A program made the translations under genes and the position numbers. A stretch of DNA of 64,000 nt from Ignavibacteriota bacterium (lineage in GTDB: Bacteria; Bacteroidota; Ignavibacteria; UBA10030): contig OY969585.1 of NCBI GenBank assembly GCA_963701295.1, positions 3,520,001 through 3,584,000 of the forward strand. Reading direction: 5' to 3'. Below are positions 3,104 through 44,161 of this stretch, piece after piece; position 1 is the first letter of the stretch; each line of letters opens with the position of its first letter. The notes beneath the pieces were generated by a model that was given only the letters and a program-made list of their open reading frames with translations, searched no databases and was not told the DNA's origin.

Positions 3104-3395
3104 GCAATTGAATTCTCTTATGTAACCTGATAATTAAAGTTCATAGATTCTTCAGTATCTTTCATTTTCATGGTCGGTTAGATAATAAGGAACTCCAATT
3201 AAAAAAGCAAATGATGAAAAGGATTTTTTTAAGTGTTAACCCCATCTTCCTATACTGACTCCATTTACCTGTTCCGTCACCTACGATTCTTCTTCCTGGA
3301 ATGAAGGGCAAAGCAAATAGAAAAGCAGTCGAGAATTTTCTCTGTCACATTGATTATTGCCTATTTTGCCCTATTTTCTTCATTCATCAGAATGG

Positions 3396-5188
3396 CTAAT
3401 CCTCTTCGGTTGTGTTCGAGACGACTTCTTCGAGAGTGGTACTTCCCTCTTTCATTCTCTCCATCCCCGATCGTCGCAATGACCACATTCCGTCCTTTAT
3501 TGCTTGATCACGGATAGCATTCTCGTCTACTTTATCGCCTGCATTCAAAATAATATCCTTAATTGGCTTAGTAAAGTATAAAGCCTCATGAATTGCAGCG
3601 CGTCCCTTATATCCGCCGCTACATTTTTCACATCCGACTGCTGTATAAAATGTATGGGTAGAGATATCTTCATCGGTAAGACCGAATTTCAAGAGGTCTT
3701 TCTTTTCACTATTATCCATCGGTTTCTTGCATACATTGCAAAGCGTGCGGATAAGTCGCTGGGCGACAATAACATTGATTGCATATGCAAGCAGGAATGG
3801 TTCAATACCCATTTTGAACAAACGCGCAATTGCACTGGGGGCATCATTTGTATGCAATGTTGAAAAAACCAAATGGCCTGTATTTGCCATCTTAATGGCC
3901 GTTTCTGCGGTTATCTTATCTCGCATTTCACCAACAAGCACAATGTCAGGATCGTGACGCAGGATTCCACGGATCGCCTCGTCAAATCCCATCTTAGGAC
4001 CAATTTTCAGCTGACGCGCTCCTTTGACGATATATTCTACCGGGTCTTCGATCGTCAACACATTCACAGTGGGATCAATAACCTGATACAACGCTGCAAT
4101 CAGTGTAGTTGATTTACCGGATCCAGTCGGACCTGTAAGAATGATAATCCCCTGAGGTTTATTAATGGCTTTATAAAAGAATTGACGTGCCGGTCCCTGT
4201 AACCCTAATTTTTCTAAATCGGTGATAACTTTGCGGTCATCCAATACGCGGATAACAACGCTCTCAAACTTATGTTTGAATTCCGTAGTTACGATTGGCA
4301 TGATTGAAACACGGAACCGGAGTTGATGCCCGTCAATAACGCGTTGTATGAATCCATCTTGAGTCATTTCACGCTCAAACCGATCTACATTCTTCGTACG
4401 ATCCTTGATCACCGCGAGCACTGCCTCAGGAACTGTGTTATCTTGAATGTGCCAGACTTGCAGATCGCCGTCCATGCGAAATAAAAAGTTGGTTCGGTTA
4501 CCTTCCGACGCGACGACGTGAATGTCACTTGCACCCCGTCTCACTGCTTCAACCAAACACCCCTCGAACAGATTGACCAAAGCGCTCTTGCTGATTTCTG
4601 CTTCGAGAGCCTGTTCATCAAGTTGTTCATCTCCTCCGCCACCTTCTTCAACAGTGATTTTATTATCATCAAGAAGTTTTAGAAACTCGTTTTGGGCTGG
4701 TGCCACTTTATCCATTAACGACTGGAATTCTTTTAAGCGCACATAACAAATTTCATATTTCTTCACATTGAAACTGCGAGCCACAATAGGCAGATTGCGA
4801 TCAGTAGGATCCGCTGCTATAATGATGAGTTTATCCGGCTGGCGTTCATCAAATTTGAACGGCAACATTTTTGATTGGATCATCATTTCGCGCTGCTGGT
4901 CTGAAAGCTGATCGACATATTTCTTTGTAAAAGCGATCCGTGCATCATCAACTTTTTCATCATCCTAAGAAATACTTCGCGGAAAGCATAAAGATTTGCC
5001 ACTTCGCGGAATACCGCATCGTGATCTGCTCCAAATTCTGTTACAAGGATCTGCCCAAGATTTTTTCGGTTTTTCTTATTTTCATCGGAATCCTTCATCT
5101 TGAGGGACTTCTCAAGCGTTTCAAAGTCGATAATCCCCTTTTTGAGGAGCGTGTAACCGATTTTATCAGTTATATCTATTTCGGCCAT
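3396..5188 (-). CDS. pilB: Type IV pilus assembly ATPase PilB/GspE, split by a +1 frameshift near 4966
   Basis: ORFs 4883..5188 (MshEN-like 'KIGYTLLKKGII', 'LGQILV') and 3396..4886 (GPTGSGKS, RHDPD, CxxC-CxxC) join in frame if one G is removed at ttcttaGgatgatgaa. Confidence 0.88.
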
Positions 5189-13412: not shown

Positions 13413-13953
13413 ACCTAACGGATGGCGGCTAAGTCCCGATTTGATCTTCGATCAAATCGAGTATCCCGTACAGCGGGACTGACGTGCTGATAACTTTTGC
13501 GCCAGAGGCGCATGTGCCTTGGGCACACAATATACACAAAACGAACAAAGTTCATTCTAAAAAGTTTATTATTAATAACCAAACCTCTGCTCGCCATGCT
13601 TGGCGTACCACACCTGCCCCGCGTTTTTGCAGGGCTCATTCCGTTAGCTTGAATATTATGACAAAGTCAAGCCGATTTCAAGAGTACCAAATTGACCGAT
13701 TTGTAATTCGGAATATAACCGACTCCGACCACACTAACGCACACACCACCAGGTGAAACGAGCTTTCTCCATTGAATAGCCTTTGCTGACGTACATACTA
13801 TCTAGCTTCTGCGACTTGAAGAGTTGGGTCTTCTTCAAGCTGTAGGCTCGATGCGCCTTGAGCCGCGTTAGACTTCTTCAACTCTTCCTTGGTGTATGAC
13901 TTGTGTACCTTCCGTTATTTATGTCTTTAGTCTAATGGAACCGCTGGTTATGT
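13413..13953 (-). repeat. attC interrupted by two hairpin insertions and an insert of about 290 bp
   Basis: acctaacgga at 13413, ctggttatgt at 13944-13953, consensus arms broken by inserts. Confidence 0.8.
13653..13939. mobile_element. Putative non-autonomous, non-coding element inserted in attC
   Basis: Extra sequence between AGCTTGA and ACCGCTGG of the attC arm, GAA at both junctions, weak sub-terminal inverted repeats, several internal hairpins. Confidence 0.5.
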
Positions 13954-13963
13954 TGCAATTGTT

Positions 13964-15276
13964 TCATCTAAGTAAAACAAGTTTCTTCGTTTCTGTAAAT
14001 GTTCCGGCTTGCAAACGATAAAAATAAATTCCGCTCGACATATTTGCCGCATTCCATTGTTTAGAACAATTTCCCGCTGACATTTCTTCCGAGACAAGTG
14101 TTGCAACTTCTCTTCCTAATAAATCAAATACTTTTAATGATACAAACGATTCTTTTGGAAGATCATAAGAAATAGTAGTTGTTGGATTAAATGGATTGGG
14201 ATAATTCTGACTCAGAGTAAATCTCTTTGGCTGAGAAGAAGGTTGCTTTACATTAGTCATTAAATCAGAAAGAGGCCGCCTCCACGCACCGCCACCCTCA
14301 GTTCCGACCAAGAGATCCTTGCCGCCTTTCCCATCGGGAGATACGGTGACAGTCCAGTCCCAAGGGTTCATCGAGGCCGAATGAATGTCAGTCCAATGAG
14401 CACCGTTGTCAGTAGAAAAAAAGACACCGCCACCCCATGTCCCAACAAAGATATTTGTGTCACCTGTCTCTTCGGGAGATACGGCGATTGAATTGATAAA
14501 AGTGGTTGTGAGACCGGAATTAACGGCAGTCCAATTAATGCCGTTGTTTGTGGAAAGAAAGATCCCATTATGTGTACCTGCAAAAAGATTCGTTCCACTA
14601 ACAGCAAGAGCATTTACATTGGTATTAGCTAGACCTGAGTTGACGGCAGTCCAATACGTGCCGTTATTGGTAGAAAGAAAGACTCCGCCACCCTGAGTCC
14701 CGGCAAAGATATTTGAGCTGTCCGTTCCGTTTTGGGTTACGGCCAGAGCATAGACTGTATCGTTCGTCAAACCAGAATTGACAGCAGTCCAGTGTGTCCA
14801 ACTTGACCCGTTAAAGGCTGAGCGAAATATCCCGTTGCCTTTAGTACCGACAAAGAGATTTAAGCTATCGGTCCTTCCAGGTGATGGACTCACGGCAAGT
14901 GACCAAATATCCGTGTTCGATATACCGGAATCGACTGCAGTCCAATTTGTCCATCCAGTTCCATTATAGATCGATAGAAAAACCCCATGGTGAAATGTGC
15001 CTGCAAAGAGAAGCGTGTCAGATGCTGTAAGAACAGTGGCAACAATATTCGTAGATCCAAATGGATCCCAGCGTGTTCCATTGTTAGTCGATAGAAAGGC
15101 TCCACCATCGGTTGTTGAAAAGAGATACGTGCCGCCTGCCCCGTTTGGAACGACGGCAAAAGAAAGAACAGCATAATTAGTTAACCCGGAATCAATAGCA
15201 GTCCATTGAGCAGAAGTTTCAGCCGGCAAAAAGAACAATCCACCAATGAATAAAACAGCAACGAAAAGAACTTCAT
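13964..15276 (-). CDS. Secreted beta-propeller (BNR/Asp-box-like repeats) with T9SS C-terminal domain; frameshift in the signal peptide
   Basis: Repeats 'GVFLSTNNGT.W'; CTD 'SQNYPNPFNP'; RBS-preceded ATG at 15276 is out of frame with the body, and the called ORF start lies inside attC. Confidence 0.8.
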
Positions 15277-15326
15277 AAGATTTTCCTCTTTTAATTGTTC
15301 TTTTTAGGTAATTAAATAAGAATGCA

Positions 15327-15512
15327 ACATAACGGACGGGCGCTAAGCTGCGGCGCTGCAAACGTTCAACATGCTGATAACGGAACAAATTCATTGTACT
15401 TATTTTCATATTAAAGCAAAATCTCTGCTTGTCATGCTAATTGTAGCGAACCTGCCCGCCATACTTTATATTTTGGCGCGCTCATTCCGTCAACTTGAGC
15501 GCCCGGTCAGGC
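15327..15512 (-). repeat. attC (R'' variant GCCTGAC)
   Basis: acataacggacgggcgctaagctgcgg...ccgtcaacttgagcgcccggtcaggc. Confidence 0.85.
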
Positions 15513-20565: not shown

Positions 20566-22053
20566 TTATTTCAGTAGAATAAGTTTCTTTGTTTCAGTAA
20601 ACGCTCCGGCTTGCAATCGATAAAAATAAATTCCACTCAATACATTTACTGCATTCCACTGCTTAGAATGACTTCCTGCCGACATTTCTTCAGAGACAAC
20701 AGTTGCTACTTCTCTTCCAATAATATCAAATACCTTCAACGAAACAAATGATTTTGATGGAAGACGAAAAGAGATAGTCGTCGATGGATTGAACGGATTT
20801 GGATAATTTTGAGACAGTGAATAACCTTTGACGATGGTACTCCCATCCGTTGGGACATCTGTTGTATTTACCGGAATCCATGAAATAATGATTCTGTAGC
20901 CGGTAAAATTATACGTAGAGCCGCTTACAGCAAGAGGAAAGTTGTAATCTGTCGGTACCCATGAAGAACCGGACCACAATGTATTATTTCCCGTAAGCTC
21001 ATTCCCATGTGCATCGTAGGTGAAGGTGGATTGCCGATAATTTGTCCATAGCCCATTTAGCCAGTCTTGAATTAATTCATTAACCATATTTCCATTTGGA
21101 TCGTACGTGTATGTGTAGAGCGATCCATTCATCCACGTTTCATTTGTCCATCCCTTTAACCAATCTGTAAGCATTTTTCCATTCGCATCGTAGGTGTACG
21201 TGTGGAGCGTTGAATTTGTCCATTGCCCATTAGCCGAGTTCTGTAAGAGAAAACTAAGCATATTTCCGTTCGCATCGTAGGTGTAGGTGGATAGTGTTGC
21301 ATTTTCCCATTGCCCATTCCAAACCTGCATCAAGCCGGTAAGCATGTGCCCATTTCCATCATAGGTATAGGTCCACTGTTCTGAATTTGTCCACTTACCG
21401 GACAACCATTGCTCAAACAAAAAAGTTAGGTGATTCCCGCTGTTGTCATTGGTGTAAGTGCTTCGATCATGATTTACCCATTGCCCATTTGTCATGTACT
21501 CACCTAAATTAGTAAGCATACCCCCATTTGCATCATAAGTGCGAACGCTAAAAATAGAATCCTTTCTTACCCCTCCAGACCAATAACTAAACAAATGAAC
21601 AAGCATATTGCCCTTTGCATCAAAGGTTGAGCTGTCTAATGTTGAATTTACCCATTGCCCATTCAGCCACATCTGCTCCAGATCAATGCTGTTATCATTC
21701 GCACCAAAGTATGTCCAGGTGTCCAGCATATAATTTCCCCAATTCCCATTCACCCAAGCTTTTACTAATCTTTGAGTAGTTGAACCCTTCTGGTCATAAG
21801 AAGCAGTTATGAGTATAGTATCTTCCATTGAATAAAGTGTTAATGAATCAGGAAGATAAATTTGAGCATTAGGAGCAGTTTTTTTGTTTAATCCTGAGTT
21901 AAGCTGAGCTTGTTTATTGAAGATAGGTCCGGAACCATGCTTTTGTTGAGCCGCCATTTTTTCTATGTTCAAGCTCTGTGTCCCTTGTGCTCTGAGATTG
22001 TGTGCAGGTATAATGAAGAACATAACTGCAAGAATTGCCAAAAAAAGTTTCAT
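20566..22053 (-). CDS. Secreted repeat protein ('YTYDANGN...W.NG.W' repeats) with T9SS C-terminal domain
   Basis: Repeats of about 29 aa; signal peptide; CTD. Confidence 0.8.
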   Translation of the reverse strand: MKLFLAILAVMFFIIPAHNLRAQGTQSLNIEKMAAQQKHGSGPIFNKQAQLNSGLNKKTAPNAQIYLPDSLTLYSMEDTILITASYDQKGSTTQRLVKAWVNGNWGNYMLDTWTYFGANDNSIDLEQMWLNGQWVNSTLDSSTFDAKGNMLVHLFSYWSGGVRKDSIFSVRTYDANGGMLTNLGEYMTNGQWVNHDRSTYTNDNSGNHLTFLFEQWLSGKWTNSEQWTYTYDGNGHMLTGLMQVWNGQWENATLSTYTYDANGNMLSFLLQNSANGQWTNSTLHTYTYDANGKMLTDWLKGWTNETWMNGSLYTYTYDPNGNMVNELIQDWLNGLWTNYRQSTFTYDAHGNELTGNNTLWSGSSWVPTDYNFPLAVSGSTYNFTGYRIIISWIPVNTTDVPTDGSTIVKGYSLSQNYPNPFNPSTTISFRLPSKSFVSLKVFDIIGREVATVVSEEMSAGSHSKQWNAVNVLSGIYFYRLQAGAFTETKKLILLK

Positions 22054-22289
22054 AACATCCTCCTTTTTAAATAAAAAGTTAAAAAATTAGTATTTAGTTT
22101 ACATAATATACTAAACGAAACAAGTTCATGCTGATAACCAAATTAATTTATCCCCAACCAACGAGGTACCGAAAAGGTAATAATAAAAACGTCAACCCAC
22201 CATTAGCCATGAATTTTGCAGTGCGCTCTTACCGTCAGCTTGAGCGCCTGGTATGTTGAGTCTGTGACAATTATTTTCGTATCCTAATC

Positions 22290-22475
22290 CATTGGCAAAG
22301 TCATAGGAGAGATAGGAGCCGCTAGATATCTTCCCAGAAGAATATCGTTAACCAGATACATCTCCCTATGACTTTCCGCTTCTCAAGAATCTGAACAGTA
22401 CTTTGAGATCCATATTTCTTTCCCGTGGAATCCCGTATAACGCACGAGTCAAGATCACAAGGAAGCTGCCAATGT
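22290..22475 (+). ncRNA. Putative bridge RNA of the IS621-like element
   Basis: Stem aaagtcatagg-agagat/atctc-cctatgacttt encloses GAGCCGCT and TAACCAG (attC target match); downstream ACAGTAC matches the element's right end. Confidence 0.75.
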
Positions 22476-22513
22476 ATTTCTTCTCTTAACCTCTATTTCA
22501 AGGAGCTTTTGCT

Positions 22514-23537
22514 ATGACGATCTTAAAACAAACCATCGGTATCGATGTCTCTTACAAATCCTTCGATGCCAGATTCGGTACCATCAATACTCAACAAGAA
22601 ATAAACCTATCTGCTTCAAAATCCTTCAAAAACTCACTCGCAGGATTCAAACTCTTTCTGCGATGGCTCAAGAAATATATCCTCTCCGACGATATTCCTC
22701 TGGTCTTTGTCATGGAAGCTACTGGCGTCTATTACGAACACCTCTCTCACTTCCTCTTCCAGCAGGGGTATCAAGTTGCCGTTATCCTGCCCAATAAAAT
22801 TAGAAATTATGCCAAATCTCTCGAATCCAAATCCAAAACCGATCCTCATCGATGCCGCCGTCATTACTCGATTTGGCCTTGAACGACAACTCTCACTCTG
22901 GATGCCGCCTTCAGAGACTATAAAAACTCTGCGCGATCTCTGCAGGGAATACCACTGCCTCAAAGCTAACTGCACGCAAATTAAGAATCAACTCCACGCT
23001 CTCCAATCTTCCTTCAAGCCGCACAGAGAGTCCTTCAAACGCAAAACCCAACTCCTCAAATTCCTCGAACGGCAGGTCGCGCTTATTAAAAAGGAACTTC
23101 TCGCCTTAGTCAAGACCGAGCCTGATCTTCTGGCCCAGCGTCTCAAGAAAATCAAAACAGCTAAAGGCCTCGGCGATATGACCATCCTCACCGTCCTATC
23201 TGAAACTCGCTGCTTTGAGCTTGTCTCCAATCAAAAGCAGCTTACCAGCTACGCTGGTTTCGACATCGTCTTTAACGACTCTGGCTTGAAGAAAGGAAAA
23301 ACTTCTATCTCAAAAAAGGGCAATAAGTTTATCCGTAAAGCTCTCTTTATGCCTGCCATCTCTGCCTGCCGGGCTAATCCTGATCTCAAAGAACTCTATC
23401 AACGTCTTATTGCTAAAGGCAAAAATAAAAAACTTGCCATCGTTGCTGTCGCTCGTAAATTATTACTCCTGATCTCCACGCTCTGGAAATCTAATTCTGT
23501 TTACGTCCCCACTTATAAACCGATCCAACTCGTTTAA
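22514..23537 (+). CDS. IS110 transposase/recombinase, frameshifted near 22845
   Basis: 'IGIDVS', 'MEATGVY', 'KTD.IDA', 'DSG' serine motif, 'ISKKGNKFIRKAL', 'AVARKLL'. Confidence 0.88.
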
Positions 23538-23622
23538 TACTTACGCTGTCTCTTGTTCTTTGAAATATTTTTTACTCTAACTCTTGACTTTTACCACAGT
23601 ACCTGGTTAGGCAGCAATTGTA

Positions 23623-26282
23623 CTAACGAAGTAAAATGAGTTTTTTTGTTTCTTTAAATAAACCTGCATCCAAACAATAGAAATATATACCACTCGAGAA
23701 ATTCGATGCATCCCATTGTATAAGATGTTTCCCCGCTGTTTCTTCCCCATTTACTAAAATTGATACTAATCGTCCAAGAGGATCATAGATTTTCAACATT
23801 ACATACGATTGGGACGCAAGTTCGTAGCTGATGGTTGTTTCAGGATTAAAGGGATTGGGAAAATTATTGTTGAGTTTAAACTGTTTAGGGATTTCTTTAT
23901 GTTCTTCAACATCGGTCGTTTTTTGAAATGAAATCCAGTTGATGTTGAAACCTCCAGTGATAACCTCCAAACGGAGTACCTTATTCACACCCGATTTTAT
24001 TGTGATATTCGACAGGGAAACGGTCTTCCATTGCTGCCATCCGGAAGTATTAGGTATACTTATCGTGCCAAGATCGGTGCCGTCAAAAATAATTTTTAAT
24101 TTGCCACTTGCACTAACTGAAGCAATGCGCACGTCGAGCATTGATATATCAGCATTGACGTCAACCGTATAGGTCAACCATTCGCCATCACTAATCCAAC
24201 CGACATCATAGCCACCCCCTGTATCGCTGCATGTCTCTATATCCACGTCATCAGTTCTGTACTGACCGCCATTATTTCCGGCATCTGTATCAAAATAAGA
24301 AACACCGTTACTTCCGAGATCATAATTTTCAGCTTCTATTTTCCCGGGAATTTGAGCAGGCGTACCTGAATACGGACCGGTTTAATCAATGTTAATACTG
24401 AAGTTGTAATTGAAGGATAAGAGTAACCATCATTGTTCTTACCGGTAATACGATACATATACAAGGTGCTGCCTGATAAACTGGAATCGGTAAATACAGT
24501 ATCGTTGGCAATGGTACTTCCGATCGAATCAAATTTAGTATTGCCGTATCGTTCTATCAGGTAGCCGGTTTCATTAGAAATATTATTCCAGACAATCTTT
24601 GCCTGATTAAACGAAGGCGATGTCGCAGAAACGATAACCGGGGTTTCCATATTGTTTTGCATCTCTTTTGGGCCTATAGCCCAGGTGTAAGGCAGGAATG
24701 GATCTTCTTCATAATCGAACCAGTCGAAATCTGCAGGGTTAACATTTTTAAATCCATTCCCTGATGCGTACATTCCGATGAAAACACCGGTAAAGCCCCC
24801 GATGACTTCTGTGGACAGGTCTTTTGTTAATGCAGAACCTATCAGCTCGGCTGATTTTCCTTCCTGCTGTATCCAAAACTGGTACTGAAGGTCTGTTGCA
24901 CTGATCCGTAAGATGATATCGCCGTCAGGAATTTCTTTATAATTGAGTCCAACAACTTTATCCTGCAAATATTTCCGAAGCATTATCACTCGTTTCCCTG
25001 CAAACATAGTAATGAGAAGATCATAATGATTTTTATCGTCTCCACGAACCACCAAACCAACTTCTTCATTTTCAGCAGTTGGAATAAAACTAATGTTCGT
25101 TGATGCAACAAGATTAAATGCCGTTTGTCTGCGACCTATAAAAGCAGGCGAATCTTGTTCTTTAAAACTAATTTTTGAACCATTTAGCCTGAGAAATCCA
25201 GGTTTTGCACTAAGCGACCAATCTGCAGCATAAGGATTACGGATAAAATTCCAAGGCAGGCGCAATGCCACACTGTCGAAATTATCTCGGATGGAATCTT
25301 TTTCCCAGACATACTGAGGAAGATTTGGAGCGTTGTACACGGAATCTACGATTCCATTCGTTCCACCTTTAGGCCACCCATCGGAATTCCAGGCAATAGG
25401 TGCCAGAAATGTTTCACGACCTAAATGATGATAGTTGCCACCTTTGGGTCTGATACCGAGGCAAACCAACCACCAGCTACTATCTTGGAGTTGAACTAAA
25501 TCAGCGTGTCCAATAGCCTGAAAAGGATTATTGGGAACATCCTTATGCGAAATAACCGGGTTTATAGGACTTACAGTATAAGGTCCCCAAGGTGATTGAC
25601 TCCTCTGAATTACTTCCATGTGCTGATAACCCGTTCCTCCTTCAGCAGACATCAAATAATAGTATCCATTAATTTTATACAAATGTGAACCTTCGGGAGA
25701 TGCTCCACCAGTCCCTGAAGCTATCTTTGTCAATGGCTTAATGAAGTTGCCCGTTTTAGGATTCATTGTACCTAGCAAAAAACTACCATTATTGTCAGGA
25801 CTAACATAGTACATGCTATCGTTTTCGAACAATAGCGAAGGATCTACGTACCAGTAGTTTATCCAATGAGGATCGGACCAAGGACCAGCGGGATTTGTGG
25901 CAGTTACATAAAACTCCCCTTGAGAACCTTGCCCGCCATAGTTTGTGCAAATTACATAAAAAGTGCTGTCTTTATAGCGCAAAGTCGGGGCATATTGACC
26001 ACCCGAACCTGATGCACAACCCATCAAAGGATTGTTGCTTGCACGGGATAAAACATATCCAATCATTTTCCAATGCACCAAATCTTTACTGTGATATATT
26101 GGCAACCCGGGAAAATACTCAAAAGTAGATGTTATCAAATAATAGTCATCACCAACACGGCATATACTTGGATCAGGATTCATACCAGTAATTATTGGGT
26201 TTCGAAAGGTCGTTTGCGCAAGGACCTTAAATGTAAGGGCAATCAATCCTAAAAAAATTATTGTCGTTAATCTGTTCCACAT
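23623..26282 (-). CDS. GH43 xylosidase/arabinofuranosidase + FN3 + CBM6 + T9SS CTD, frameshifted near 24378
   Basis: 'NPDPSICRVGDDYYL', 'PEGSHLYK'; CBM6 'IPGKIEAENYD...GYDVGWI..GEW'; CTD. Confidence 0.88.
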
Positions 26283-26325
26283 AATGTTTGTTCCTTCTCT
26301 TATTCATTTACGTTATACAATTGCC

Positions 26326-26465
26326 GCTTCATGGATGGCGGTTAAGCTGCGACAACGTGAACTTCCAAATTGCACTACCCGAACCAAGTTCATTCGCTTC
26401 ATTTTCAAATCTGTACTAAACCTCTATACGCCAAGCTAAATGCACCAACGATTTTACGGTCAATC
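26326..26465 (-). repeat. Degenerate attC
   Basis: gcttcatggatggcggttaagctgcg plus typical interior; both core triplets lost. Confidence 0.65.
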
Positions 26466-26567
26466 CCGAAATCACTATTGTTAATATCGATAGTAAGTAT
26501 TTTTTCATATTCCAATTTTTTTTAGATGTTTATTATAAATTTTAAACGCGTGAATTCATTATGATTA

Positions 26568-28208
26568 CTATTCTTTTAGTATTTTAAATACCATCGCAAT
26601 ATTGTTTGGAATAATATTCGGTTTTTTTATTACAAGTGAATCAGAATATTGTTTCCACTGAAGCTTTTCTTTGCTGCCAAGTATTCCGATGTTTTTAATT
26701 TTGGCATTGTCTTTCGTTTTGCCAAGCGATTTCAAGCATACATCATCTGTTGGTACGCCCAATACAGTTGCATAAAGCATATTTCCTTTCTGGTTGAATC
26801 GAATATCTTTTGAAGAGAATTTGCTCTTCCCTTCGTTAAACCCTGGTGAATTAACCGTCCTTACTGTTTCGGTAGAGGGACCTTCGCCATAGATTAGCCA
26901 AGGACGTGTATCGTAAATACTTTCTTTATTAATGTCCATCCAAGCAGCAATTCCATCAAGTACTGCAATTTCTTTTTCGTCTATAGTCCCGTCACCACGA
27001 ACCGGTATGTTTAGTAGCAAGTTGCCATTTTTGCTGACAATATCGACAAGCATGTGAATCACAGTTATCGCTGATTTGTATTCGTTTTTCTCATAAATCG
27101 ATCTCTTATAATGCCAGTCGCCAATGCATGTACATGTTTGCCAAGCTTCAGCTTGAATGCTCTCAGGCGCTCCCCGCTCTACATCCCATACTATACATTT
27201 TTTTTGCTCATCGGTAAGAACTTTCCCAAACAAAACAGCTTCGAGCTTACCATTGTGGGTTGCCATATTATGATTGTAAAAGTGGGCAGCAATTTTTAAT
27301 CCGGCATCACTTATTGGATAAAGCGGAAGGGCAGTATCATCGAAATAAAGCAGATCGGGGTTAAACCGGTTAATCAGGTCAACAGTGCGGTTGTAAAACT
27401 TATCACAGTAGTTTTGCGAAGGTATGGAAGCGCCATTGCCCCATGTCCATTGCCCGAATATGGAGTTGATATCATAACTACCTTCGCTTAGCAAATGGTT
27501 TTGAGCGTAGAGCTCCTGCGGGTCAAGTCCTTCCCACCATGTTCCTTTACCATCGGTCTTTGTGAGTTTCCCATCGTATGGAACACCCACAAGCTCTCCA
27601 TTTTTATCAGAATGTTGAGAGGTTTCCAACCACGTCCATGAACGTGATGCATGTACACTCAATCCGAATGGAAGGCCATATTTTTTAGCAGCTTTAGCCC
27701 AACCGTCAATAATATCCTTTTTGGGCCCAACGTGTACAGTGTTCCATTCCTGGTACTTACTATTCCACAAGTCAAGATTATCGTGATGGTTTGCCAGGGC
27801 AAAGAAGTATTGGGCACCTGCCCGTTTATAAAGTGCCACAAGTTTTTCCGGATCCCAATTTTGAGCTTTCCAGTCATTAATAACTTCCTTAAAACCTGCT
27901 TTGGATGGATGTCCATAATGTGCAACATGCCATTTATATTGGTCGCTGCCTTCGTTGTACATGTACCGCGCATACCAGTCACCTTGCTCAGGCTGACACT
28001 GTGGGCCCCAATGAGCCCAAATGCCAAACTTGGCGTTACGAAACCATTCGGGCGCTTTATATTGCAGGAGCGACTGCCATGTAGCTTCGAACTTTCCCGG
28101 GGCAGCAGGTTCGTTACCTGGACGAACAGGACAAGGATAACTGGTTTGTGCAAAAGATATTTGCTGAAAATAAAGTGTAACAATTAATAAAAAAGTTGTT
28201 TTCATCAT
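26568..28208 (-). CDS. Alpha-L-fucosidase (GH29)
   Basis: 'WFRNAKFGIWAHWG', 'HHD', 'LYFD', 'DIVSKNGNLLLN'. Confidence 0.92.
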   Translation of the reverse strand: MMKTTFLLIVTLYFQQISFAQTSYPCPVRPGNEPAAPGKFEATWQSLLQYKAPEWFRNAKFGIWAHWGPQCQPEQGDWYARYMYNEGSDQYKWHVAHYGHPSKAGFKEVINDWKAQNWDPEKLVALYKRAGAQYFFALANHHDNLDLWNSKYQEWNTVHVGPKKDIIDGWAKAAKKYGLPFGLSVHASRSWTWLETSQHSDKNGELVGVPYDGKLTKTDGKGTWWEGLDPQELYAQNHLLSEGSYDINSIFGQWTWGNGASIPSQNYCDKFYNRTVDLINRFNPDLLYFDDTALPLYPISDAGLKIAAHFYNHNMATHNGKLEAVLFGKVLTDEQKKCIVWDVERGAPESIQAEAWQTCTCIGDWHYKRSIYEKNEYKSAITVIHMLVDIVSKNGNLLLNIPVRGDGTIDEKEIAVLDGIAAWMDINKESIYDTRPWLIYGEGPSTETVRTVNSPGFNEGKSKFSSKDIRFNQKGNMLYATVLGVPTDDVCLKSLGKTKDNAKIKNIGILGSKEKLQWKQYSDSLVIKKPNIIPNNIAMVFKILKE

Positions 28209-28246
28209 ATATTAATTTTTTACAATTGATATTAATGCCCTTTACA

Positions 28247-30292
28247 TCATTTGATTTCAATAAATTCCGGCTCAAAAGGTAAAATTGTAAAATTACCGGT
28301 ATAATCTTTATCAAAGAGGATACTCCGCGAGTTTCCTTTCATATGAATCTCTTTTGATTCACCACTTACATTCATATATAGGAAATGGTTCTTATCTATT
28401 TGTCTTGCCATTACATCCGAAGGAACATCTGGACCCTTATTTATTGACAGCTCGCTTATCAGCTCATCAAGCAAAGGATTAAGTATGTCAACTTTTGCAG
28501 GAAGGCCAACATAAATTGCTCTGCCTTTACCATATTTATTAGAAGTTATAATTGGGTAGTCTTTATCTAAGCTGGTTATGCTGCCGAGAATTTCTGCACC
28601 TTTAGGTTCGATAACATCAAACCGTGACGATTCTGTAGTAATAGCTTTCCCTTTATAGGTAAATTCAATCATTTTACCCTTAAATGATTTTCTGGATATT
28701 TCATTTAACGCTTCAGGTTCTTCGAAACTTCCAACACGTATTCCGAATATATCATTTAAACGGCCAGGGTGGGTAGAAGCAAACACCTGTCCGGTTTCAT
28801 CAACAACAGCCGAATTACTTGTCATAATAACAGTTCCGCCATTTTTCACAAAATTGCAGATTTTAGCAGCAGTTACTTCGTCCATTACCGCTACGCCAGG
28901 TATAATCAGCAATTTGTAGTTTAACGGGCTTTTGGTAATCTCAACAATACGGACATCCATGTTACGATGATAAAACAAATCAAAACAACTCTGCAGCTGG
29001 TTTTGATGTTGTTCCGGAAAATAGCTGCTTGCTATCTGACTGGGAAAGGAAAAAGCTAATCCTACTTCAGCCTGAACTTTATAAGGGAAATACTTCTCAA
29101 TCTTTTTGAATTCTGCAGCGATTTTTTTGTATTCTTCGTATTTGCGGTTTGGAATTCCGTCCCAATCTATCATACCTTCCAGGTATTGTTCTTCTCCGCC
29201 GTGCATACTTTGCCAGGTCCATCCGCAAACCATCTCGTTACCATACATAAGCGTAGCATAGGCTGACTTTCTGATAGAATTGGGAACAGCAGTCATAGTT
29301 GTAAATTCAGTATTCCAGTAAGGATTTGTGCTTTCAAATTGAACACGCGAAATCCCAAACAAAGCGTCCATAACACCCCAATTGGTAGTTAAAGATAGTC
29401 CCGGATAAAAACCAGTACCTTCGCGGGTCATTTTACCTGAATAGGCAATTGGGGAATAATCAAAATATTTCATTTGGCTATAATACCATGCATTGGTGTT
29501 TACTAAGGCATTCGGAGCATTTGTGTTCACTACATCAATGACCTTAAATAGGAACTCAACGATTTCATCTGAAACAAAACGTCTGAAATCGAGCATTCTT
29601 TCAGGCACATCGGTAGTGTGGGTTGCTACAGGAAAGCCAATTTCTTCAAACTGGTTTATCCTTCTCGACCAGCGTTGGGTTGCCCATGCTTTATTCAAAT
29701 TATCAAGGTTGGTATATTTATTCTTTATCCAGGCAATGAATCTTTGTCGGGCTGTTTCAGAATAGGAAATCCGGCCATCCCCAGATTCGTTGTCAACTCC
29801 GAAAGCCAACAATGCCGGATGATTTCCATACCGTCTAGTAAGTGAATCAGCATACCTCGCTGCATATTTCTGGTACATCGGGTCGCCAATATCTTCCATA
29901 TATCGATGATTTGGGTATTGCACATCGCCATTTGCATCTGTAATATCAATTGAAGGATATTTGTGGTGCAGCCAGATTGGGGCAGGCCGAATAGCAATAT
30001 CTAAAATTACTTTAATTCCAGCTTCGTTCATCAAATCCATAACCTTATCAAACCAATCAAAATCGAATTTTCCATCAGATGGTTCGTAACTGTCCCATGC
30101 TAAATGACCCATTCGTACAACTTTGAATCCAGCATCTTTCATTAGCTTGATATCACTTTTTATTTTTTTAGGATTTTTATCGTCATGAGGATGATAGTTA
30201 GCTCCAACATATAACTCCCGAGCTTTTAAAACAAGTCCCTGAGAGAATAATATGGCGGTCAGGATTAGTGTTATGTAAAATTTTGTTTTCAT
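28247..30292 (-). CDS. Beta-galactosidase (GH42-like)
   Basis: 'GANYHP', 'AWDSYEPSDG.FDF.W', 'DNE' acid/base motif, trimerisation domain. Confidence 0.85.
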   Translation of the reverse strand: MKTKFYITLILTAILFSQGLVLKARELYVGANYHPHDDKNPKKIKSDIKLMKDAGFKVVRMGHLAWDSYEPSDGKFDFDWFDKVMDLMNEAGIKVILDIAIRPAPIWLHHKYPSIDITDANGDVQYPNHRYMEDIGDPMYQKYAARYADSLTRRYGNHPALLAFGVDNESGDGRISYSETARQRFIAWIKNKYTNLDNLNKAWATQRWSRRINQFEEIGFPVATHTTDVPERMLDFRRFVSDEIVEFLFKVIDVVNTNAPNALVNTNAWYYSQMKYFDYSPIAYSGKMTREGTGFYPGLSLTTNWGVMDALFGISRVQFESTNPYWNTEFTTMTAVPNSIRKSAYATLMYGNEMVCGWTWQSMHGGEEQYLEGMIDWDGIPNRKYEEYKKIAAEFKKIEKYFPYKVQAEVGLAFSFPSQIASSYFPEQHQNQLQSCFDLFYHRNMDVRIVEITKSPLNYKLLIIPGVAVMDEVTAAKICNFVKNGGTVIMTSNSAVVDETGQVFASTHPGRLNDIFGIRVGSFEEPEALNEISRKSFKGKMIEFTYKGKAITTESSRFDVIEPKGAEILGSITSLDKDYPIITSNKYGKGRAIYVGLPAKVDILNPLLDELISELSINKGPDVPSDVMARQIDKNHFLYMNVSGESKEIHMKGNSRSILFDKDYTGNFTILPFEPEFIEIK

Positions 30293-36090: not shown

Positions 36091-36424
36091 ATAATTTAAA
36101 TTTAAATTTAAATTTAACGGAGAATTTTTCTTTTTAGTATCAATAAAGCTTTAAATTTCATCGAAGTTCGGCTTGCACTTAACTATTTCAAAACGCAACC
36201 TAACGGATGGCAACTAAGCTGCGGCACTAAAAACCCTCAAGTTGCCGAAAACGAACCAAGTTTATTATAAAATATTTCAATCAATAATCCCTAAGCGCCA
36301 TGCGTAACATACAAACGCTCATACCGTCAGCTTGAGTTGCTGGATATTACCAAAAAGGAATCTCCCGATTATGTACATTGATAATTCTCTAGGTCACCAA
36401 CATCCACAATCTAAGGAGATTCCC

Positions 36425-37426
36425 ATGTATTACTCAGGTATCGATTTGCATTCTGATAATTGTTTTATCACCACTGTTGATGACACTGGTGCTGTCATCA
36501 AGCGACAACGTGTCGAGAATAACAATGAACGTGTTCTTGATTACTTCCACTCTCTGCCCGGTCCTCATCACGCAGTCGTTGAGTCTACCACAGGATGGTA
36601 CTGGCTCAACGATCTTCTCAGCGATCACGGCATCGAGCTTGTCCTTGCTCACGCCAAATATCTCAAAGCCATCAGTTATGCTAAAGTTAAAACAGATAAA
36701 GTCGATTCGCAAACTCTTGCTCTTCTCTTACGACAGGGACTCATTCCACGGGCTCACAAAATCAGCCGAGAACTACGCGGCCTGCGCGATACCATGCGTA
36801 TTCGTCTACGGCTCGTTCAGCAACGAACTGCCAGTCTTCTGCGTCTCTACAGTATTCAGACCAAATTTAACGGCTCTGTTCCGGATCCGTATCGTTTTCA
36901 ACTTGCTGTCTTGCAACATACCAGAGACACTTTTACTGCTCAGATCCTCTCGCTGGAAAAATCTCTCCATCCTGTGCTGATTCCCAACGACGATATTCAA
37001 CGGCTCTTGCACATTCCAGGTATCGGCAAGCTCACCGCATTCACGGTGTATCTTGAAATCGACGGCATTGAACGATTCGACTCCGATAAAAAGTTTGTCT
37101 CTTACTGCCGACTCGTCCCTGCTGCCGATAACTCCAATCGCTCTGTGCACCATCGCTCCAGCAAAGACGGCAATAAGTATCTCAAAATCGCCTTCTCCGA
37201 TGCCGCTGTTCATGCTATTCAGTACTATCCGGAATACAAACGCTTATTCCAGAAATTAGCTCGTCGCTCCAATGAGGCGACTGCGCGAACCGTCGTTGCC
37301 AAAGAACTTGCGAAGATTGTTTACTATGTCTTAAAAAACAAAACAATATATAAAGGTCTCAAAGGTCAGCCGATCAGCCGGCATAAATCTCAGCAGTGGC
37401 CGCGCCTCTCAAGCCCGCTTTCCTAA
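36425..37426 (+). CDS. IS110-family transposase/recombinase
   Basis: RBS AAGGAG; 'GIDLH', 'VEST', 'KTDKVDS', 'IPGIG', 'SKDGNKYLK'. Confidence 0.92.
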   Translation: MYYSGIDLHSDNCFITTVDDTGAVIKRQRVENNNERVLDYFHSLPGPHHAVVESTTGWYWLNDLLSDHGIELVLAHAKYLKAISYAKVKTDKVDSQTLALLLRQGLIPRAHKISRELRGLRDTMRIRLRLVQQRTASLLRLYSIQTKFNGSVPDPYRFQLAVLQHTRDTFTAQILSLEKSLHPVLIPNDDIQRLLHIPGIGKLTAFTVYLEIDGIERFDSDKKFVSYCRLVPAADNSNRSVHHRSSKDGNKYLKIAFSDAAVHAIQYYPEYKRLFQKLARRSNEATARTVVAKELAKIVYYVLKNKTIYKGLKGQPISRHKSQQWPRLSSPLS

Positions 37427-37700
37427 CTGATCCCGACTGCGTCGGGATCGTTCGCTGGATTGGGAAGAGAGTGCGCTGTGCCGTGGTAATATCTGGAACA
37501 TCTCGCTCGACGAGATACGCTTTCACCATCGTTTCTTCAATGAGTGAATGTAAATCCGTAAACTGGTTTGGACGGCATTGCTCTGGTAATCGCCTGTCTA
37601 TTCGATAGAGAACGCGGCATCGGCACGGATTCGGTCGTCCTTAATGTTAAAGAACTCTGCATTCCGATTGCGCGGAACGCATCGGGAGTATATTATTTAC
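37400..37700 (+). ncRNA. Putative bridge/seek RNA of the IS1111-like element, copy 1
   Basis: Two stem-enclosed loops carrying CCTAAC + GCTGG (target) and GGTAATATC + TAAACTGG (donor junction). Confidence 0.7.
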
Positions 37701-37740
37701 TTGACTCTTTCCTTTTTAAACTGGTTATGTTGCAATTGTT

Positions 37741-39819
37741 TCATTTGAGCAAAACAAGTTTCTTCGTTTCAATAAATAAACCCACTTGTAAACGATAAAA
37801 GTAAATTCCGCTCGAAATAGTAGCCGCATTCCATTGACGTGCATGATTTCCTGTCGACATTTCTTCCGAAACCAGTGTTGCTACTTCTCTTCCTAAAATA
37901 TCAAACACCTTCAACGAGACAAAAGATCTATATGGAAGACTAAACGAAATAGTGGTCGACGGATTAAACGGATTAGGATAGTTTTGTTTAAGAGTGAAAT
38001 GCGTTGGTAAGTCGGTCGAATGTTTTACCACTGAAGTGATCACCTCCGACAACTGACGTCTCCAGACGCCGTCCCCAGTCCCTGCAAAAAGATTCGAATC
38101 GGATAAAGCAAGAGCTTGGACAAAATCGTTTGTTAATCCGGTATTGACTTGAGTCCAACTTGTACCATTGTTGGTAGAAAGAAAGACACCGTCATCCAAA
38201 GTTCCAGCAAAGAGAGTTGTACCGGATACAGCAAAAGCATTGATATAATTAGCGTAATTTCCTGTCAATCCTGAATTGACCGCAGTCCAGCTCGCGCCGT
38301 TGTTGGTAGAAAGAAATACACCACCGCCAGAAGTCCCTGCAAAAAGATTCTGGCCGGAAACTGCAAGAGCTAGAACGGTATCATTCGTCAATCCAGTGTT
38401 GACTTGAGTCCAATTTGTACCATTGTTAGTAGAAAGAAAAACGCCATAATAAGTCCCGGCAAAGAGATTCTGGCTGGAAACTGCAAGAGCTAGAACGGTA
38501 TCATTCGTCAATCCAGTGTTGACTTGAGTCCAATTTGTGCCATTGTTAGTAGAAAGAAAAACGCCATAATAAGTCCCGGCAAAGAGATTTGTTCCGGAAA
38601 GGGCAACAGTAGAGACATGAGTGTTCGTCGGTAACCCTGAATTAACAGCATTCCAGCTTGTACCGCTGTTGCTGGAACGAAAGACGCCATCCCTAGTCGC
38701 TGCAAAAAGATTCGAATCGGATAAAGTAAGAGCTTGAACAGTATCGTTCATCAATCCGTTATTGACTACAGTCCAGTTCGTGCCGTTGTTAGTCGAAAGA
38801 AAAACACCACCGCCTTGAGTCCCTGCAAATATTTTTTTATTGGAGATCGCGAGTGTTAAGACTTGAATATCTGTCAAGCTGGTATTAACATCAGTCCAAC
38901 TAATACCGCTATTGGTCGAAAGAAAGATGCCGGCGTCCCGAGTTCCTGCAAAGAGATTTGTACTGGAGACTACAAGAGCATTGACCCAATTGGACGTTAA
39001 GCCGCTATTAACCGCAGTCCAAGTCGTACCATTGGAAGTAGAAAGAAAGACACCTCCGTTCGGGTACGCAGCAAAGAGATTTGTGCCTGAGACTGCAAGA
39101 GCATTGACACCAGCATACTTTAAACCGGTGATGTCCCAGCCTGCGCCGTTATTGGTGGAAAGAAAAACGCCTCCGTTAGCTCCTGCAAAAAGATTTGTGT
39201 CGTAAGCGACAAAAGCATAGACATTAGTGTACGATAAACCGGTATTAACCCAACTTGTACCGTTGTTAGTGGAACGAAAGATACCACCAGAAGTTCCTGC
39301 AAAGAGATTCGTGTCAAAAGCGGCAAGTGTCCATACACAGGTATTCGTCACGCCGGTATTAACCCAACTTGTACCGTTATCACTGGAACGAAAGACGCCG
39401 CTCCAAGTCCCTGCAAAAAGATTCCCGCTAAATACTGTAAGAGCTGTAATAAAATTGTCTGTCAATCCGGAATTGACCGCAGTCCAGCTCATGCCGTTGT
39501 TAATAGAGAGAAAGACACCCCCGCCAGAAGTCCCTGCAAAGATATTCTTTCCAGAAACTGCAAGAGAAGAGACTTCATTATTTGTCAAGCCATTGCTCGC
39601 CGCAATCCAGCTTGTACCGTTATTGGTAGAGAGAATGACACCACCGTCCCAAGTTCCTACGAAGAGATTCGTGTCTGACACGGCAAAGCAAGTTACGTCG
39701 GAGCTACCGACTCCTTTGGTTTGGATCCATTGAGCACGCAATTGATTTGTAGTTGTGAAGAAAACCAATAATACAAAGAGAAATCTGCTAGAACGGACAA
39801 TTCGGAAAATATTTTTCAT
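37741..39819 (-). CDS. Secreted beta-propeller repeat protein with T9SS CTD (paralogue of 13964..15276)
   Basis: About 14 'NLFAGT..GVFLSTNNG..W' repeats; CTD. Confidence 0.85.
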   Translation of the reverse strand: MKNIFRIVRSSRFLFVLLVFFTTTNQLRAQWIQTKGVGSSDVTCFAVSDTNLFVGTWDGGVILSTNNGTSWIAASNGLTNNEVSSLAVSGKNIFAGTSGGGVFLSINNGMSWTAVNSGLTDNFITALTVFSGNLFAGTWSGVFRSSDNGTSWVNTGVTNTCVWTLAAFDTNLFAGTSGGIFRSTNNGTSWVNTGLSYTNVYAFVAYDTNLFAGANGGVFLSTNNGAGWDITGLKYAGVNALAVSGTNLFAAYPNGGVFLSTSNGTTWTAVNSGLTSNWVNALVVSSTNLFAGTRDAGIFLSTNSGISWTDVNTSLTDIQVLTLAISNKKIFAGTQGGGVFLSTNNGTNWTVVNNGLMNDTVQALTLSDSNLFAATRDGVFRSSNSGTSWNAVNSGLPTNTHVSTVALSGTNLFAGTYYGVFLSTNNGTNWTQVNTGLTNDTVLALAVSSQNLFAGTYYGVFLSTNNGTNWTQVNTGLTNDTVLALAVSGQNLFAGTSGGGVFLSTNNGASWTAVNSGLTGNYANYINAFAVSGTTLFAGTLDDGVFLSTNNGTSWTQVNTGLTNDFVQALALSDSNLFAGTGDGVWRRQLSEVITSVVKHSTDLPTHFTLKQNYPNPFNPSTTISFSLPYRSFVSLKVFDILGREVATLVSEEMSTGNHARQWNAATISSGIYFYRLQVGLFIETKKLVLLK
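38341..38580. repeat. Near-perfect 120 bp intragenic tandem duplication
   Basis: 38341-38460 and 38461-38580 differ at only a few positions. Confidence 0.85.
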
Positions 39820-39857
39820 ATGTTCATCTTTTGTGAAATGGTAAAATATCAATTGCA

Positions 39858-40011
39858 ACATAACGGACCGGCGCTAAGCTGCGGCGCTGATAATTTTCAA
39901 TATCTACTAAACGAAATGAGTTCATGCTGGTTCTTTCAAATTACACCAAGCCTTTGCGCGCCATGAATTTTGCACTACGCTCATTCCGTCAGCTTGAGCG
40001 CCTGGTTAGGG
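39858..40011 (-). repeat. attC
   Basis: Consensus arms present. Confidence 0.92.
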
Positions 40012-42592: not shown

Positions 42593-42829
42593 ATGAAATG
42601 CGCCCTAACGGATGGCAACTAAGCTGCGGCACTAAAAACCCTCAAGTTGCCGAAAACGAACCAAGTTTATTATAAAATATTTCAATCAATAATCCCTAAG
42701 CGCCATGCGTAACATACAAACGCTCATTCCGTCAGCTTGAGTTGCTGGATATTACCAAAAAGGAATCTCCCGATTATGTACATTGATAATTCTCTAGGTC
42801 ACCAACATCCACAATCTAAGGAGATTCCC

Positions 42830-43831
42830 ATGTATTACTCAGGTATCGATTTGCATTCTGATAATTGTTTTATCACCACTGTTGATGACACTGGTGCTGT
42901 CATCAAGCGACAACGTGTCGAGAATAACAATGAACGTGTTCTTGATTACTTCCACTCTCTGCCCGGTCCTCATCACGCAGTCGTTGAGTCTACCACAGGA
43001 TGGTACTGGCTCAACGATCTTCTCAGCGATCACGGCATCGAGCTTGTCCTTGCTCACGCCAAATATCTCAAAGCCATCAGTTATGCTAAAGTTAAAACAG
43101 ATAAAGTCGATTCGCAAACTCTTGCTCTTCTCTTACGACAGGGACTCATTCCACGGGCTCACAAAATCAGCCGAGAACTACGCGGCCTGCGCGATACCAT
43201 GCGTATTCGTCTACGGCTCGTTCAGCAACGAACTGCCAGTCTTCTGCGTCTCTACAGTATTCAGACCAAATTTAACGGCTCTGTTCCGGATCCGTATCGT
43301 TTTCAACTTGCTGTCTTGCAACATACCAGAGACACTTTTACTGCTCAGATCCTCTCGCTGGAAAAATCTCTCCATCCTGTGCTGATTCCCAACGACGATA
43401 TTCAACGGCTCTTGCACATTCCAGGTATCGGCAAGCTCACCGCATTCACGGTGTATCTTGAAATCGACGGCATTGAACGATTCGACTCCGATAAAAAGTT
43501 TGTCTCTTACTGCCGACTCGTCCCTGCTGCCGATAACTCCAATCGCTCTGTGCACCATCGCTCCAGCAAAGACGGCAATAAGTATCTCAAAATCGCCTTC
43601 TCCGATGCCGCTGTTCATGCTATTCAGTACTATCCGGAATACAAACGCTTATTCCAGAAATTAGCTCGTCGCTCCAATGAGGCGACTGCGCGAACCGTCG
43701 TTGCCAAAGAACTTGCGAAGATTGTTTACTATGTCTTAAAAAACAAAACAATATATAAAGGTCTCAAAGGTCAGCCGATCAGCCGGCATAAATCTCAGCA
43801 GTGGCCGCGCCTCTCAAGCCCGCTTTCCTAA
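42830..43831 (+). CDS. IS110-family transposase/recombinase
   Basis: Same protein as 36425..37426. Confidence 0.92.
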   Translation: MYYSGIDLHSDNCFITTVDDTGAVIKRQRVENNNERVLDYFHSLPGPHHAVVESTTGWYWLNDLLSDHGIELVLAHAKYLKAISYAKVKTDKVDSQTLALLLRQGLIPRAHKISRELRGLRDTMRIRLRLVQQRTASLLRLYSIQTKFNGSVPDPYRFQLAVLQHTRDTFTAQILSLEKSLHPVLIPNDDIQRLLHIPGIGKLTAFTVYLEIDGIERFDSDKKFVSYCRLVPAADNSNRSVHHRSSKDGNKYLKIAFSDAAVHAIQYYPEYKRLFQKLARRSNEATARTVVAKELAKIVYYVLKNKTIYKGLKGQPISRHKSQQWPRLSSPLS

Positions 43832-44105
43832 CTGATCCCGACTGCGTCGGGATCGTTCGCTGGATTGGGAAGAGAGTGCGCTGTGCCGTGGTAATATCTG
43901 GAACATCTCGCTCGACGAGATACGCTTTCACCATCGTTTCTTCAATGAGTGAATGTAAATCCGTAAACTGGTTTGGACGGCATTGCTCTGGTAATCGCCT
44001 GTCTATTCGATAGAGAACGCGGCATCGGCACGGATTCGGTCGTCCTTAATGTTAAAGAACTCTGCATTCCGATTGCGCGGAACGCATCGGGAGTATATTA
44101 TTTAC
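43805..44105 (+). ncRNA. Putative bridge/seek RNA, copy 2
   Basis: Same sequence as 37400..37700. Confidence 0.7.
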
Positions 44106-44161
44106 TTGACTCTTTCCTTTTTAAACTGGTTAGGTGCTGTGCCCAGCATTTGCCCGTTATT

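Follow-up and report, generated by a model that had tools for sequence, protein, structure and literature searches.

In the 64,000-nt stretch of DNA that we analyzed (the window), an extended array of integron cassettes runs on the minus strand; the window also has many related attC sites and an integron integrase gene at 46706-47665 (TIGR02249, 453 bits; cut-off 265). The host genome (G000) is a single contig of 3.64 Mb with a completeness rating of 99.3%. A loose pattern count in this genome gives 110 intact-looking attC arms, arms interrupted by the two kinds of IS110-family element that we call type A (11 arms) and type B (1 arm), one arm interrupted by the insert described here, and 12 other matches. 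Members of the attC family occur in eight or more separate arrays of the genome, near 225-261, 1156-1163, 1797-1810, 2374-2496, 2820-2833, 3135-3172, 3439-3456 and 3533-3565 kb. The genes at 13964-15409, 20566-22053, 23623-24246, 37741-39861 and 48510-52256, most of them in cassettes, share a secretion C-terminal sorting domain end (PF18962 was tested for 13964-15409); others are glycoside hydrolase-like (24336-30292), an unusual cassette cargo.

The insert separates AGCTTGA from ACCGCTGG within an arm that is conserved in this family of long attC sites. A preliminary description of the DNA had placed it within attC, splitting the L box arm; the sequence and the attC family of the array agree, and the box that is split is L''. 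The boundaries given there correspond to the element plus one copy of a 2-nt core, with 287 nt from core to core. The GAA reported at both junctions is present, but the core of the family is only GA (TC on the minus strand), and relatives have CTC at the left and TTC at the right. The features of the locus are collected in Table 1, in which the names R'', L'', L' and R' are assigned according to the usual anatomy of attC sites.

Table 1. Features of the interrupted attC site and its insert (window positions; target, donor and promoter functions are predictions)
Feature	Position	Strand	Basis
Internally deleted IS110-group element, 285 bp plus one core copy	13653..13939	-	Ends match 1260-bp elements
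Start of the host attC: R'' (13947-13953), spacer of 5 nt, initial two bases of L''	13940..13953	-	Sequence compared with the attC family of the array
Remainder of the host attC: final part of L'' (13647-13650), variable region, then L' (13428-13433) and R' (13413-13419)	13413..13650	-	Sequence
Separate 45-nt hairpin insert on the L' side of the same attC	13434..13478		Related copies at the same attC position
Core dinucleotide TC, left junction	13938..13939	-	TC in 30-31 of 31 element variants
Core dinucleotide TC, right junction	13651..13652	-	20/20 distinct right junctions (the pattern required TC); also by alignment
Left end, with the bases CATT of the right donor and a predicted -10 box, TAGACT	13929..13937	-	Invariant in alignment A1
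Right end, with a predicted -35 box, TTGACT (13665-13670), and the left donor (13653-13659)	13653..13670	-	Conserved in the family
Predicted target-binding loop, three helices around two guide strands	13818..13887	-	RNAalifold consensus and pair counts
Left target guide, overlapped by CTTGAGCCGC of the preliminary description	13860..13868	-	Covariation
Right target guide, identical to TTCAAGCT of the preliminary description	13835..13843	-	Covariation
Predicted donor-binding loop	13761..13806	-	Pairing in 90.7% (helix 4) and 84.3% (helix 5) of cells
Left donor guide ATAGTAT (the element's own end is ATAATAT)	13793..13801	-	Covariation
Right donor guide, identical to TCCATT of the preliminary description	13767..13775	-	Covariation
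3' end of the transposase gene (~26 codons and the stop), with one base missing mid-way	13667..13747	-	tblastn and two-frame translation
9-bp microhomology at the deletion joint	13739..13747	-	Comparison with run X2, by eye

The same attC also carries the 45-nt hairpin insert, which has related copies at G000:1810161-1810205 and G000:30957-30980. Because the site has thus been struck twice, it is probably dead for the integrase. The rejoined empty attC, folded as DNA, adopts an alternative pairing with no clean canonical hairpin, although such folding is no test of attC function. Small hairpin inserts with CCCG...CGGGA-like arms and differing inner hairpins recur at or near one L'-side position of attC, also in two loci from relatives (L002, near 950-1000, and L004, near 1800-1850); they may be a fourth, REP-like kind of attC passenger.

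On the minus strand, the 287-bp insert corresponds, at its positions 1-180 and 223-287, to both termini of elements that are 1260 bp long and code for a transposase of 345 aa. The earlier proposal that the insert derives from an RNA-guided IS110-family element is thereby borne out by parents in other genomes. We found such parents by a DNA search of 101 related genomes, 7 of which match (host genome included), and by a guide-region pattern that recovered 37 metagenome loci and 12 genome loci, the latter assigned by title to Bacteroidota (8), Anaerolineae (3) and an archaeon bin (1). The 51 distinct loci comprise 22 of full length, 20 cut by a contig end, 4 with the left end only and 5 otherwise broken; one locus counted under 'other' (L049) probably represents a complete element, and among the full loci there are some in which a single element recurs at different sites. 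Full elements measure 1258-1275 bp, against 287 for the insert. Their layout is a left end, the guide region, the transposase gene and a short right end; in L003, ~205 nt precede the start codon and 14 nt follow the stop, and the other full-length loci are built alike. The parent protein scores 192 bits with NF033542 (cut-off 140), and its nearest solved structures are IS621 (E 1e-30) and ISCro4 (E 9e-30). Its named best matches belong to the IS621 family, and none of the 60 matches listed is named IS5075 or IS4321; among the matches listed from a plasmid collection there is no relative above 34%.

Target and donor of these elements have the 2-nt core TC in common, and empty attC sites hold one TC, so there is no target duplication. 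The attC pattern R''-spacer-L'' is fitted by 30 of 43 distinct left flanks. The remaining flanks include 3 with another IS110 end stacked in the same site, 2 that resemble worn attC and 8 other targets with changed guides. As this comparison shows, the insertion point of the parent family is the TC within the attC L'' box. The eight members at other targets (L005, L029, L040, L054, L057, L059, L063 and L067) lie at repeat-like sequences with guides changed to match, i.e., they are cases of natural reprogramming. Separately, L026, L027 and L035 have two different IS110-family elements back to back in one attC, 8 nt apart. In the literature searched, we found no IS110-group family aimed at attC; ISfinder, subscription papers and supplements could still describe one.

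The insert had been called IS1111-like. The attC-targeting elements found in print, as far as the available text of those papers goes, do belong to the IS1111 group, and elements of this kind are resident in the host genome. Type A elements are IS1111-like, with a long downstream non-coding region and 9-bp sub-terminal repeats; they lie at 36344-37720 and 42749-44125 of the window and at nine more places in the genome, all in attC, with 9 identical copies and 2 at 81-83%, and they look recently active. Type B elements, at 22252-23603 of the window and at G000:254501-255734, occupy the same attC position as type A, and both of their transposase genes are broken; because their long non-coding region is upstream, two IS110-group families target attC here. 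The core of both types lies 6 bp from that of the insert, and in opposite orientation, so that the distance given in the preliminary description is confirmed by comparison of the junctions. As an observation on the IS1111-like family alone, right-end-only remnants occur at G000:1810050-1810108, 2384985-2385033, 2382032-2382078, 3157399-3157429 and 3333530-3333603, and at least three of them adjoin the front half of an attC on one side and GGTTAGG on the other, forming chimeric attC sites.

One could therefore suppose that the insert is a derivative of an IS1111-attC element with sub-terminal inverted repeats, or that the resident type A element at 36344-37720 or its 10 other copies moved it, particularly as one type of seekRNA can go with transposases that are only 46% identical (according to the available part of PMC11187229). 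We regard this as highly improbable. The non-coding region is upstream of the transposase gene in all parents. The inverted repeat noted previously is not above chance: a proportion of 0.078 of 500 shuffles scores as high, and the corresponding values in 17 full-length relatives are 0.17-0.96, while repeats of the IS1111 group are described, in the portion of the literature available, as 7-17 bp and near perfect. The bottom-strand match comes first in the guide order, as the available text describes for the IS110 type. Beyond short words, the insert has no DNA likeness to the resident elements (best E 0.09), and resident and parent proteins are 25% identical over 190 aa. The upstream non-coding region and the chance-level inverted repeat largely refute an IS1111 origin. 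By the criteria given in the available text of PMC11208160 and PMC11187229, and judging from gene order and protein likeness, the parent is to be placed in the IS110 group and not in IS1111.

We investigated the predicted bridge RNA mainly by alignment, as folding the insert on its own is uninformative (z -0.21 for the minus strand and -1.53 for the plus strand), so that the RNA structure is visible only by this means. Among 27 aligned guide regions, the RNAalifold consensus has a target loop closed by three helices. The two donor-loop helices were not recovered by RNAalifold and are weaker than the target loop. A model with all five helices pairs 94.1% of cells, compared with 31-45% when it is slid, and has two-sided changes in 60 cells, compared with 18.7 in shuffles.

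Agreement between guides and their cognate strands was counted over distinct variants and compared with shuffles. The left target guide matches the left target at 139/155 positions in 31 variants (shuffled 99.5 +/- 4.8; 0/10000 shuffles), the right target guide at 103/120 in 20 variants (83.8 +/- 3.9; 0/10000; a count lowered by L011 and L040, whose right guide is one base out of register), the left donor guide at 128/133 in 19 variants (122.9 +/- 1.2; 15/10000) and the right donor guide at 96/96 in 24 variants (88.1 +/- 1.6; 0/10000), although these shuffle counts are not probabilities because the shuffles ignore kinship. Duplicates were collapsed; L051, a tandem with a donor junction, was excluded from the left-target tests, and L004 and L051 were excluded from the right-donor test and from alignment A2. 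Single changes are also mirrored, e.g., donor CATT to TATT with AATGGA to AATAGA in the RNA. Across the parent family, each of the four guides covaries with its target or donor strand.

It is important to consider that exact matches within the insert itself are weak alone, and the case for the guides therefore rests on covariation. The longest exact match of the insert is 8 nt to its own target (63/1000 shuffles as good), 7 nt to its own junction (139/1000) and 9 nt to a typical attC (23/1000). The covariation nevertheless upholds the earlier suggestion of a guide-RNA region that matches attC and the element's own junction. The five short motifs on which that suggestion was based are all at the places given, and three are guides: CTTGAGCCGC (0/2000 shuffles) and TTCAAGCT (19/2000) are above chance, and TCCATT, though common in shuffles (193/2000), is a true donor guide by covariation. 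The other two are coincidental: TAGCTT (13803-13808; 274/2000) belongs to the stem of the donor loop, and GGAATAT (13710-13716), despite a count of 31/2000, consists of the transposase codons Y-I-P. The left donor guide had been missed. Of three stems proposed earlier, again all present, gaagagttg/caactcttc is kept in the family, with two-sided changes in 8 of 9 pairs over the 27 sequences, but cttgaaga/tcttcaag and ggctc/gagcc are not: these are paired at 70.8%, against 70.7% when shuffled (260/500 shuffles as high). At the gathering score, Rfam has 0 matches in the window, which speaks against a fragment of a group II intron or another known RNA family.

The ends, too, are those of the family. 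Once joined, they would bring the predicted -35 and -10 boxes to a spacing of 17 nt; a circle-junction promoter is predicted here by analogy with the one described in the available text of PMC11208160. Joined right and left ends were seen once, in L051, where they are followed by a left-end-only copy in an assembly that looks noisy.

Between these ends, the gene for the enzyme is almost entirely missing. The preliminary description rightly found no transposase and no convincing ORF, but overlooked the 3' end of the transposase gene, whose last ~26 codons are all that remains. A tblastn comparison gives 81% over residues 330-345 of the L003 protein, and the C-terminal sequence typical of the family can be read from the stump in two frames. 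Taken together with its ends, the insert is, on sequence grounds, the remains of an IS110-type jumping gene that lost nearly all of its enzyme gene and kept both ends and a predicted guide RNA.

How the gene was lost is suggested by a relative in run X2 that is ~95% alike. It is represented by three short contigs, with 17 other letters over 307, whose pieces cover 13646-13718, 13739-13841 and 13820-13950 with 5, 5 and 7 other letters, respectively. One contig follows the insert to 13739 and continues into a ribosome-binding site and ATG. Another covers the right end as far as 13718; of the 30 letters that follow, 25 match 13720-13747, with one extra base, and beyond these the contig is unlike the window. 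From these contigs, the guide region and the last transposase codons each had a 9-bp near-repeat (8/9 alike in X2), of which the insert retains a single copy at 13739-13747. The simplest reading of the joint is thus a microhomology deletion of ~970 bp, presumably after insertion rather than before it, although the exact parent is not among the sequences found. Run X1 is identical to the window over 151 nt spanning the deletion joint and also over part of the next gene; as it may be the same strain, it lends no support to the deletion. Run X4 gave no match, and run X3 only attC and end pieces.

These observations suggest the following course of events. In the parent family, the RNA would pair with the two strands of attC as well as those of the joined ends, and a DEDD recombinase would insert the circle at the TC core without target duplication, as covariation and the example of IS621 indicate. 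The enzyme was then likely lost by deletion between the two near-repeats, one just before the ribosome-binding site and the other in the last transposase codons, probably through slippage in the host or microhomology repair after insertion. With no cognate recombinase in the genome, the insert would not move. It would make the attC unusable by the integrase and thereby fuse the cassette gene 13964-15409 to the next cassette.

In the host genome, BLASTN, the covariance model and end motifs all find exactly one copy of the insert. The comparison with related genomes that had been proposed earlier located full-length, transposase-encoding parents in relatives, and the proposed covariance-model search likewise found one copy in the host and no second such element in 86 genomes of the family. 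PF02371 has 13 matches over the cut-off in the host genome, namely the 11 type A and 2 type B proteins, which are 25-34% identical to the parent protein; no cognate transposase was found there. All 16 perfect 12-nt targets in the genome are empty. A second element of this build was found neither among the 37 metagenome and 12 genome loci nor in 277 genomes of the order (right-end pattern) or the 86 of the family, a search that is not exhaustive because several hits end at contig edges. A class-wide DNA search has matches in 4 of 401 genomes, none of them a new case of this build. None of the 31 informative family loci has both ends without a transposase gene; most family loci come from fragmented assemblies (20/51 end inside the element), in which repeated short forms would be under-counted. 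The preliminary description had counted a single copy without a parent against itself: there is one copy, and no parent in its own genome, but a parent exists elsewhere.

The insert is an IS110-group element without its ~970-bp middle, with ends and predicted bridge RNA kept, and we consider it likely that it is a stranded relic. It appears to be a relic and not a spreading parasite because there is one copy and no matching enzyme gene in the genome. The term 'non-autonomous', in the sense of something mobile, is thus unsupported, given a single copy and a parent known only from other genomes. One observation does run against a relic: the parts needed in cis look intact, including both ends, the promoter spacing, both loops and compensated stem changes. 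These parts need not look intact in a long-dead relic; the insert may be young, given its ~95% likeness to X2.

Intact cis parts are also what a working mini-element would have, i.e., a short form with its own bridge RNA that entered attC as it is by means of a cognate recombinase, whether of the present host or of a previous one, and that could move again. The junction promoter and all four guides are retained along with both ends, and cassettes travel between hosts. There are precedents: mini-IS of IS621 and ISEc11 move with enzyme or RNA supplied in trans, according to the available text of PMC11208160 and PMC11187229, and MITEPpu9 is a natural case, as described in the available part of PMC12288879. 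However, the lone copy, the empty targets, the missing enzyme and the failure of every search to yield a second locus weigh against it. In addition, the left donor guide has one mismatch to the element's own end, so the insert is not tuned to itself, and a frameshifted piece of transposase gene is still carried. We therefore judge a working mini-element to be rather unlikely. In its fullest form, to which we would likewise give only a small chance, a 287-bp mini-element with a complete bridge RNA arrived short and is movable by an incoming cognate recombinase, and an undescribed L''-homing IS110-group family repeatedly sheds its enzyme, also by mis-excision at an internal TC that leaves guide-only scars.

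Such guide-only remnants do occur. Among the 9 broken loci, 4 (L002, L004, L036 and L051) are left-end-only remnants with part or all of the guide region, in which attC is rejoined exactly at the TC core and there is no right end; they were selected by that very ending, and the L051 assembly looks noisy. Mis-excision at an internal core, as reported for end mutants of ISPpu9 in the available text of PMC12288879, would explain them, as would short microhomology.

The retention of guides in these four remnants, together with the whole guide region of the insert, could also be taken to mean that the relic is kept for a purpose. Its orientation is that of cassette transcription, and read-through might yield a putative RNA that soaks up the recombinase of incoming full-length relatives and so protects the attC array; consistent with this, the genome has more than 100 attC-like sites and no other copy of the parent family. 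However, that absence needs no defence, since few genomes of the order have the family in any case (10 of 277, by right-end pattern). Moreover, a whole bridge RNA in trans helps IS621 recombination and does not block it, as far as the available text of PMC11208160 goes, and one genome (G009) has a guide-only remnant beside other copies of the family. A protective role thus seems very unlikely to us.

As a stranded relic, the insert would represent ordinary IS decay, and it matters indirectly, through the IS110-group family to which it leads. The predicted bridge RNA of this family naturally targets the attC L'' box, with some members reprogrammed to other targets, and the family differs from the attC-targeting IS1111 elements in print, as described in the text available. 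The insert may also catch the first step toward a guide-carrying MITE, in which one microhomology deletion removes the enzyme and every cis part stays. If the short form does move in trans, it would provide a minimal donor, usable as it is, with which DNA could be written into integron arrays, and it could act as a brake on cassette shuffling.

Among known systems, the parent family is most like IS621, ISCro4 and ISEc21, which, in the available text of PMC11208160 and PMC11187229, have a long RNA-bearing left end, a short right end and a 2-nt core, as well as target guides and then donor guides, each in the order left, right, and a promoter formed by the joined ends. Compared with IS621, the parent protein is only ~31% identical, the core is TC, the target is the L'' box of attC, and the insert is without the enzyme. 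The IS1111-attC group (ISKpn4, ISPst6 and ISPa25; available portions of PMC11187229 and PMC11089894) resembles the parent family in being guided by RNA to one place in attC, always in the same orientation. However, its non-coding region is downstream of the transposase gene and its sub-terminal repeats are 11-13 bp, whereas the parent family has the region upstream and no such repeats. The insert itself is best compared with MITEPpu9 (the ssr9 module) of ISPpu9 in Pseudomonas putida KT2440, which the available part of PMC12288879 describes as transposase-free, with IS110 ends and a small-RNA region, at a repeated host site. MITEPpu9 has 8 copies, forms circles, targets REP and has a helper in the same genome, whereas the insert has attC as its target; of the features of a MITEPpu9-type element, several copies at different sites and a cognate helper are lacking in the insert, and ends kept without a transposase are present. 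In comparison with MITEPpu9 as described there, the insert plainly keeps all four guides and a stump of the transposase gene.
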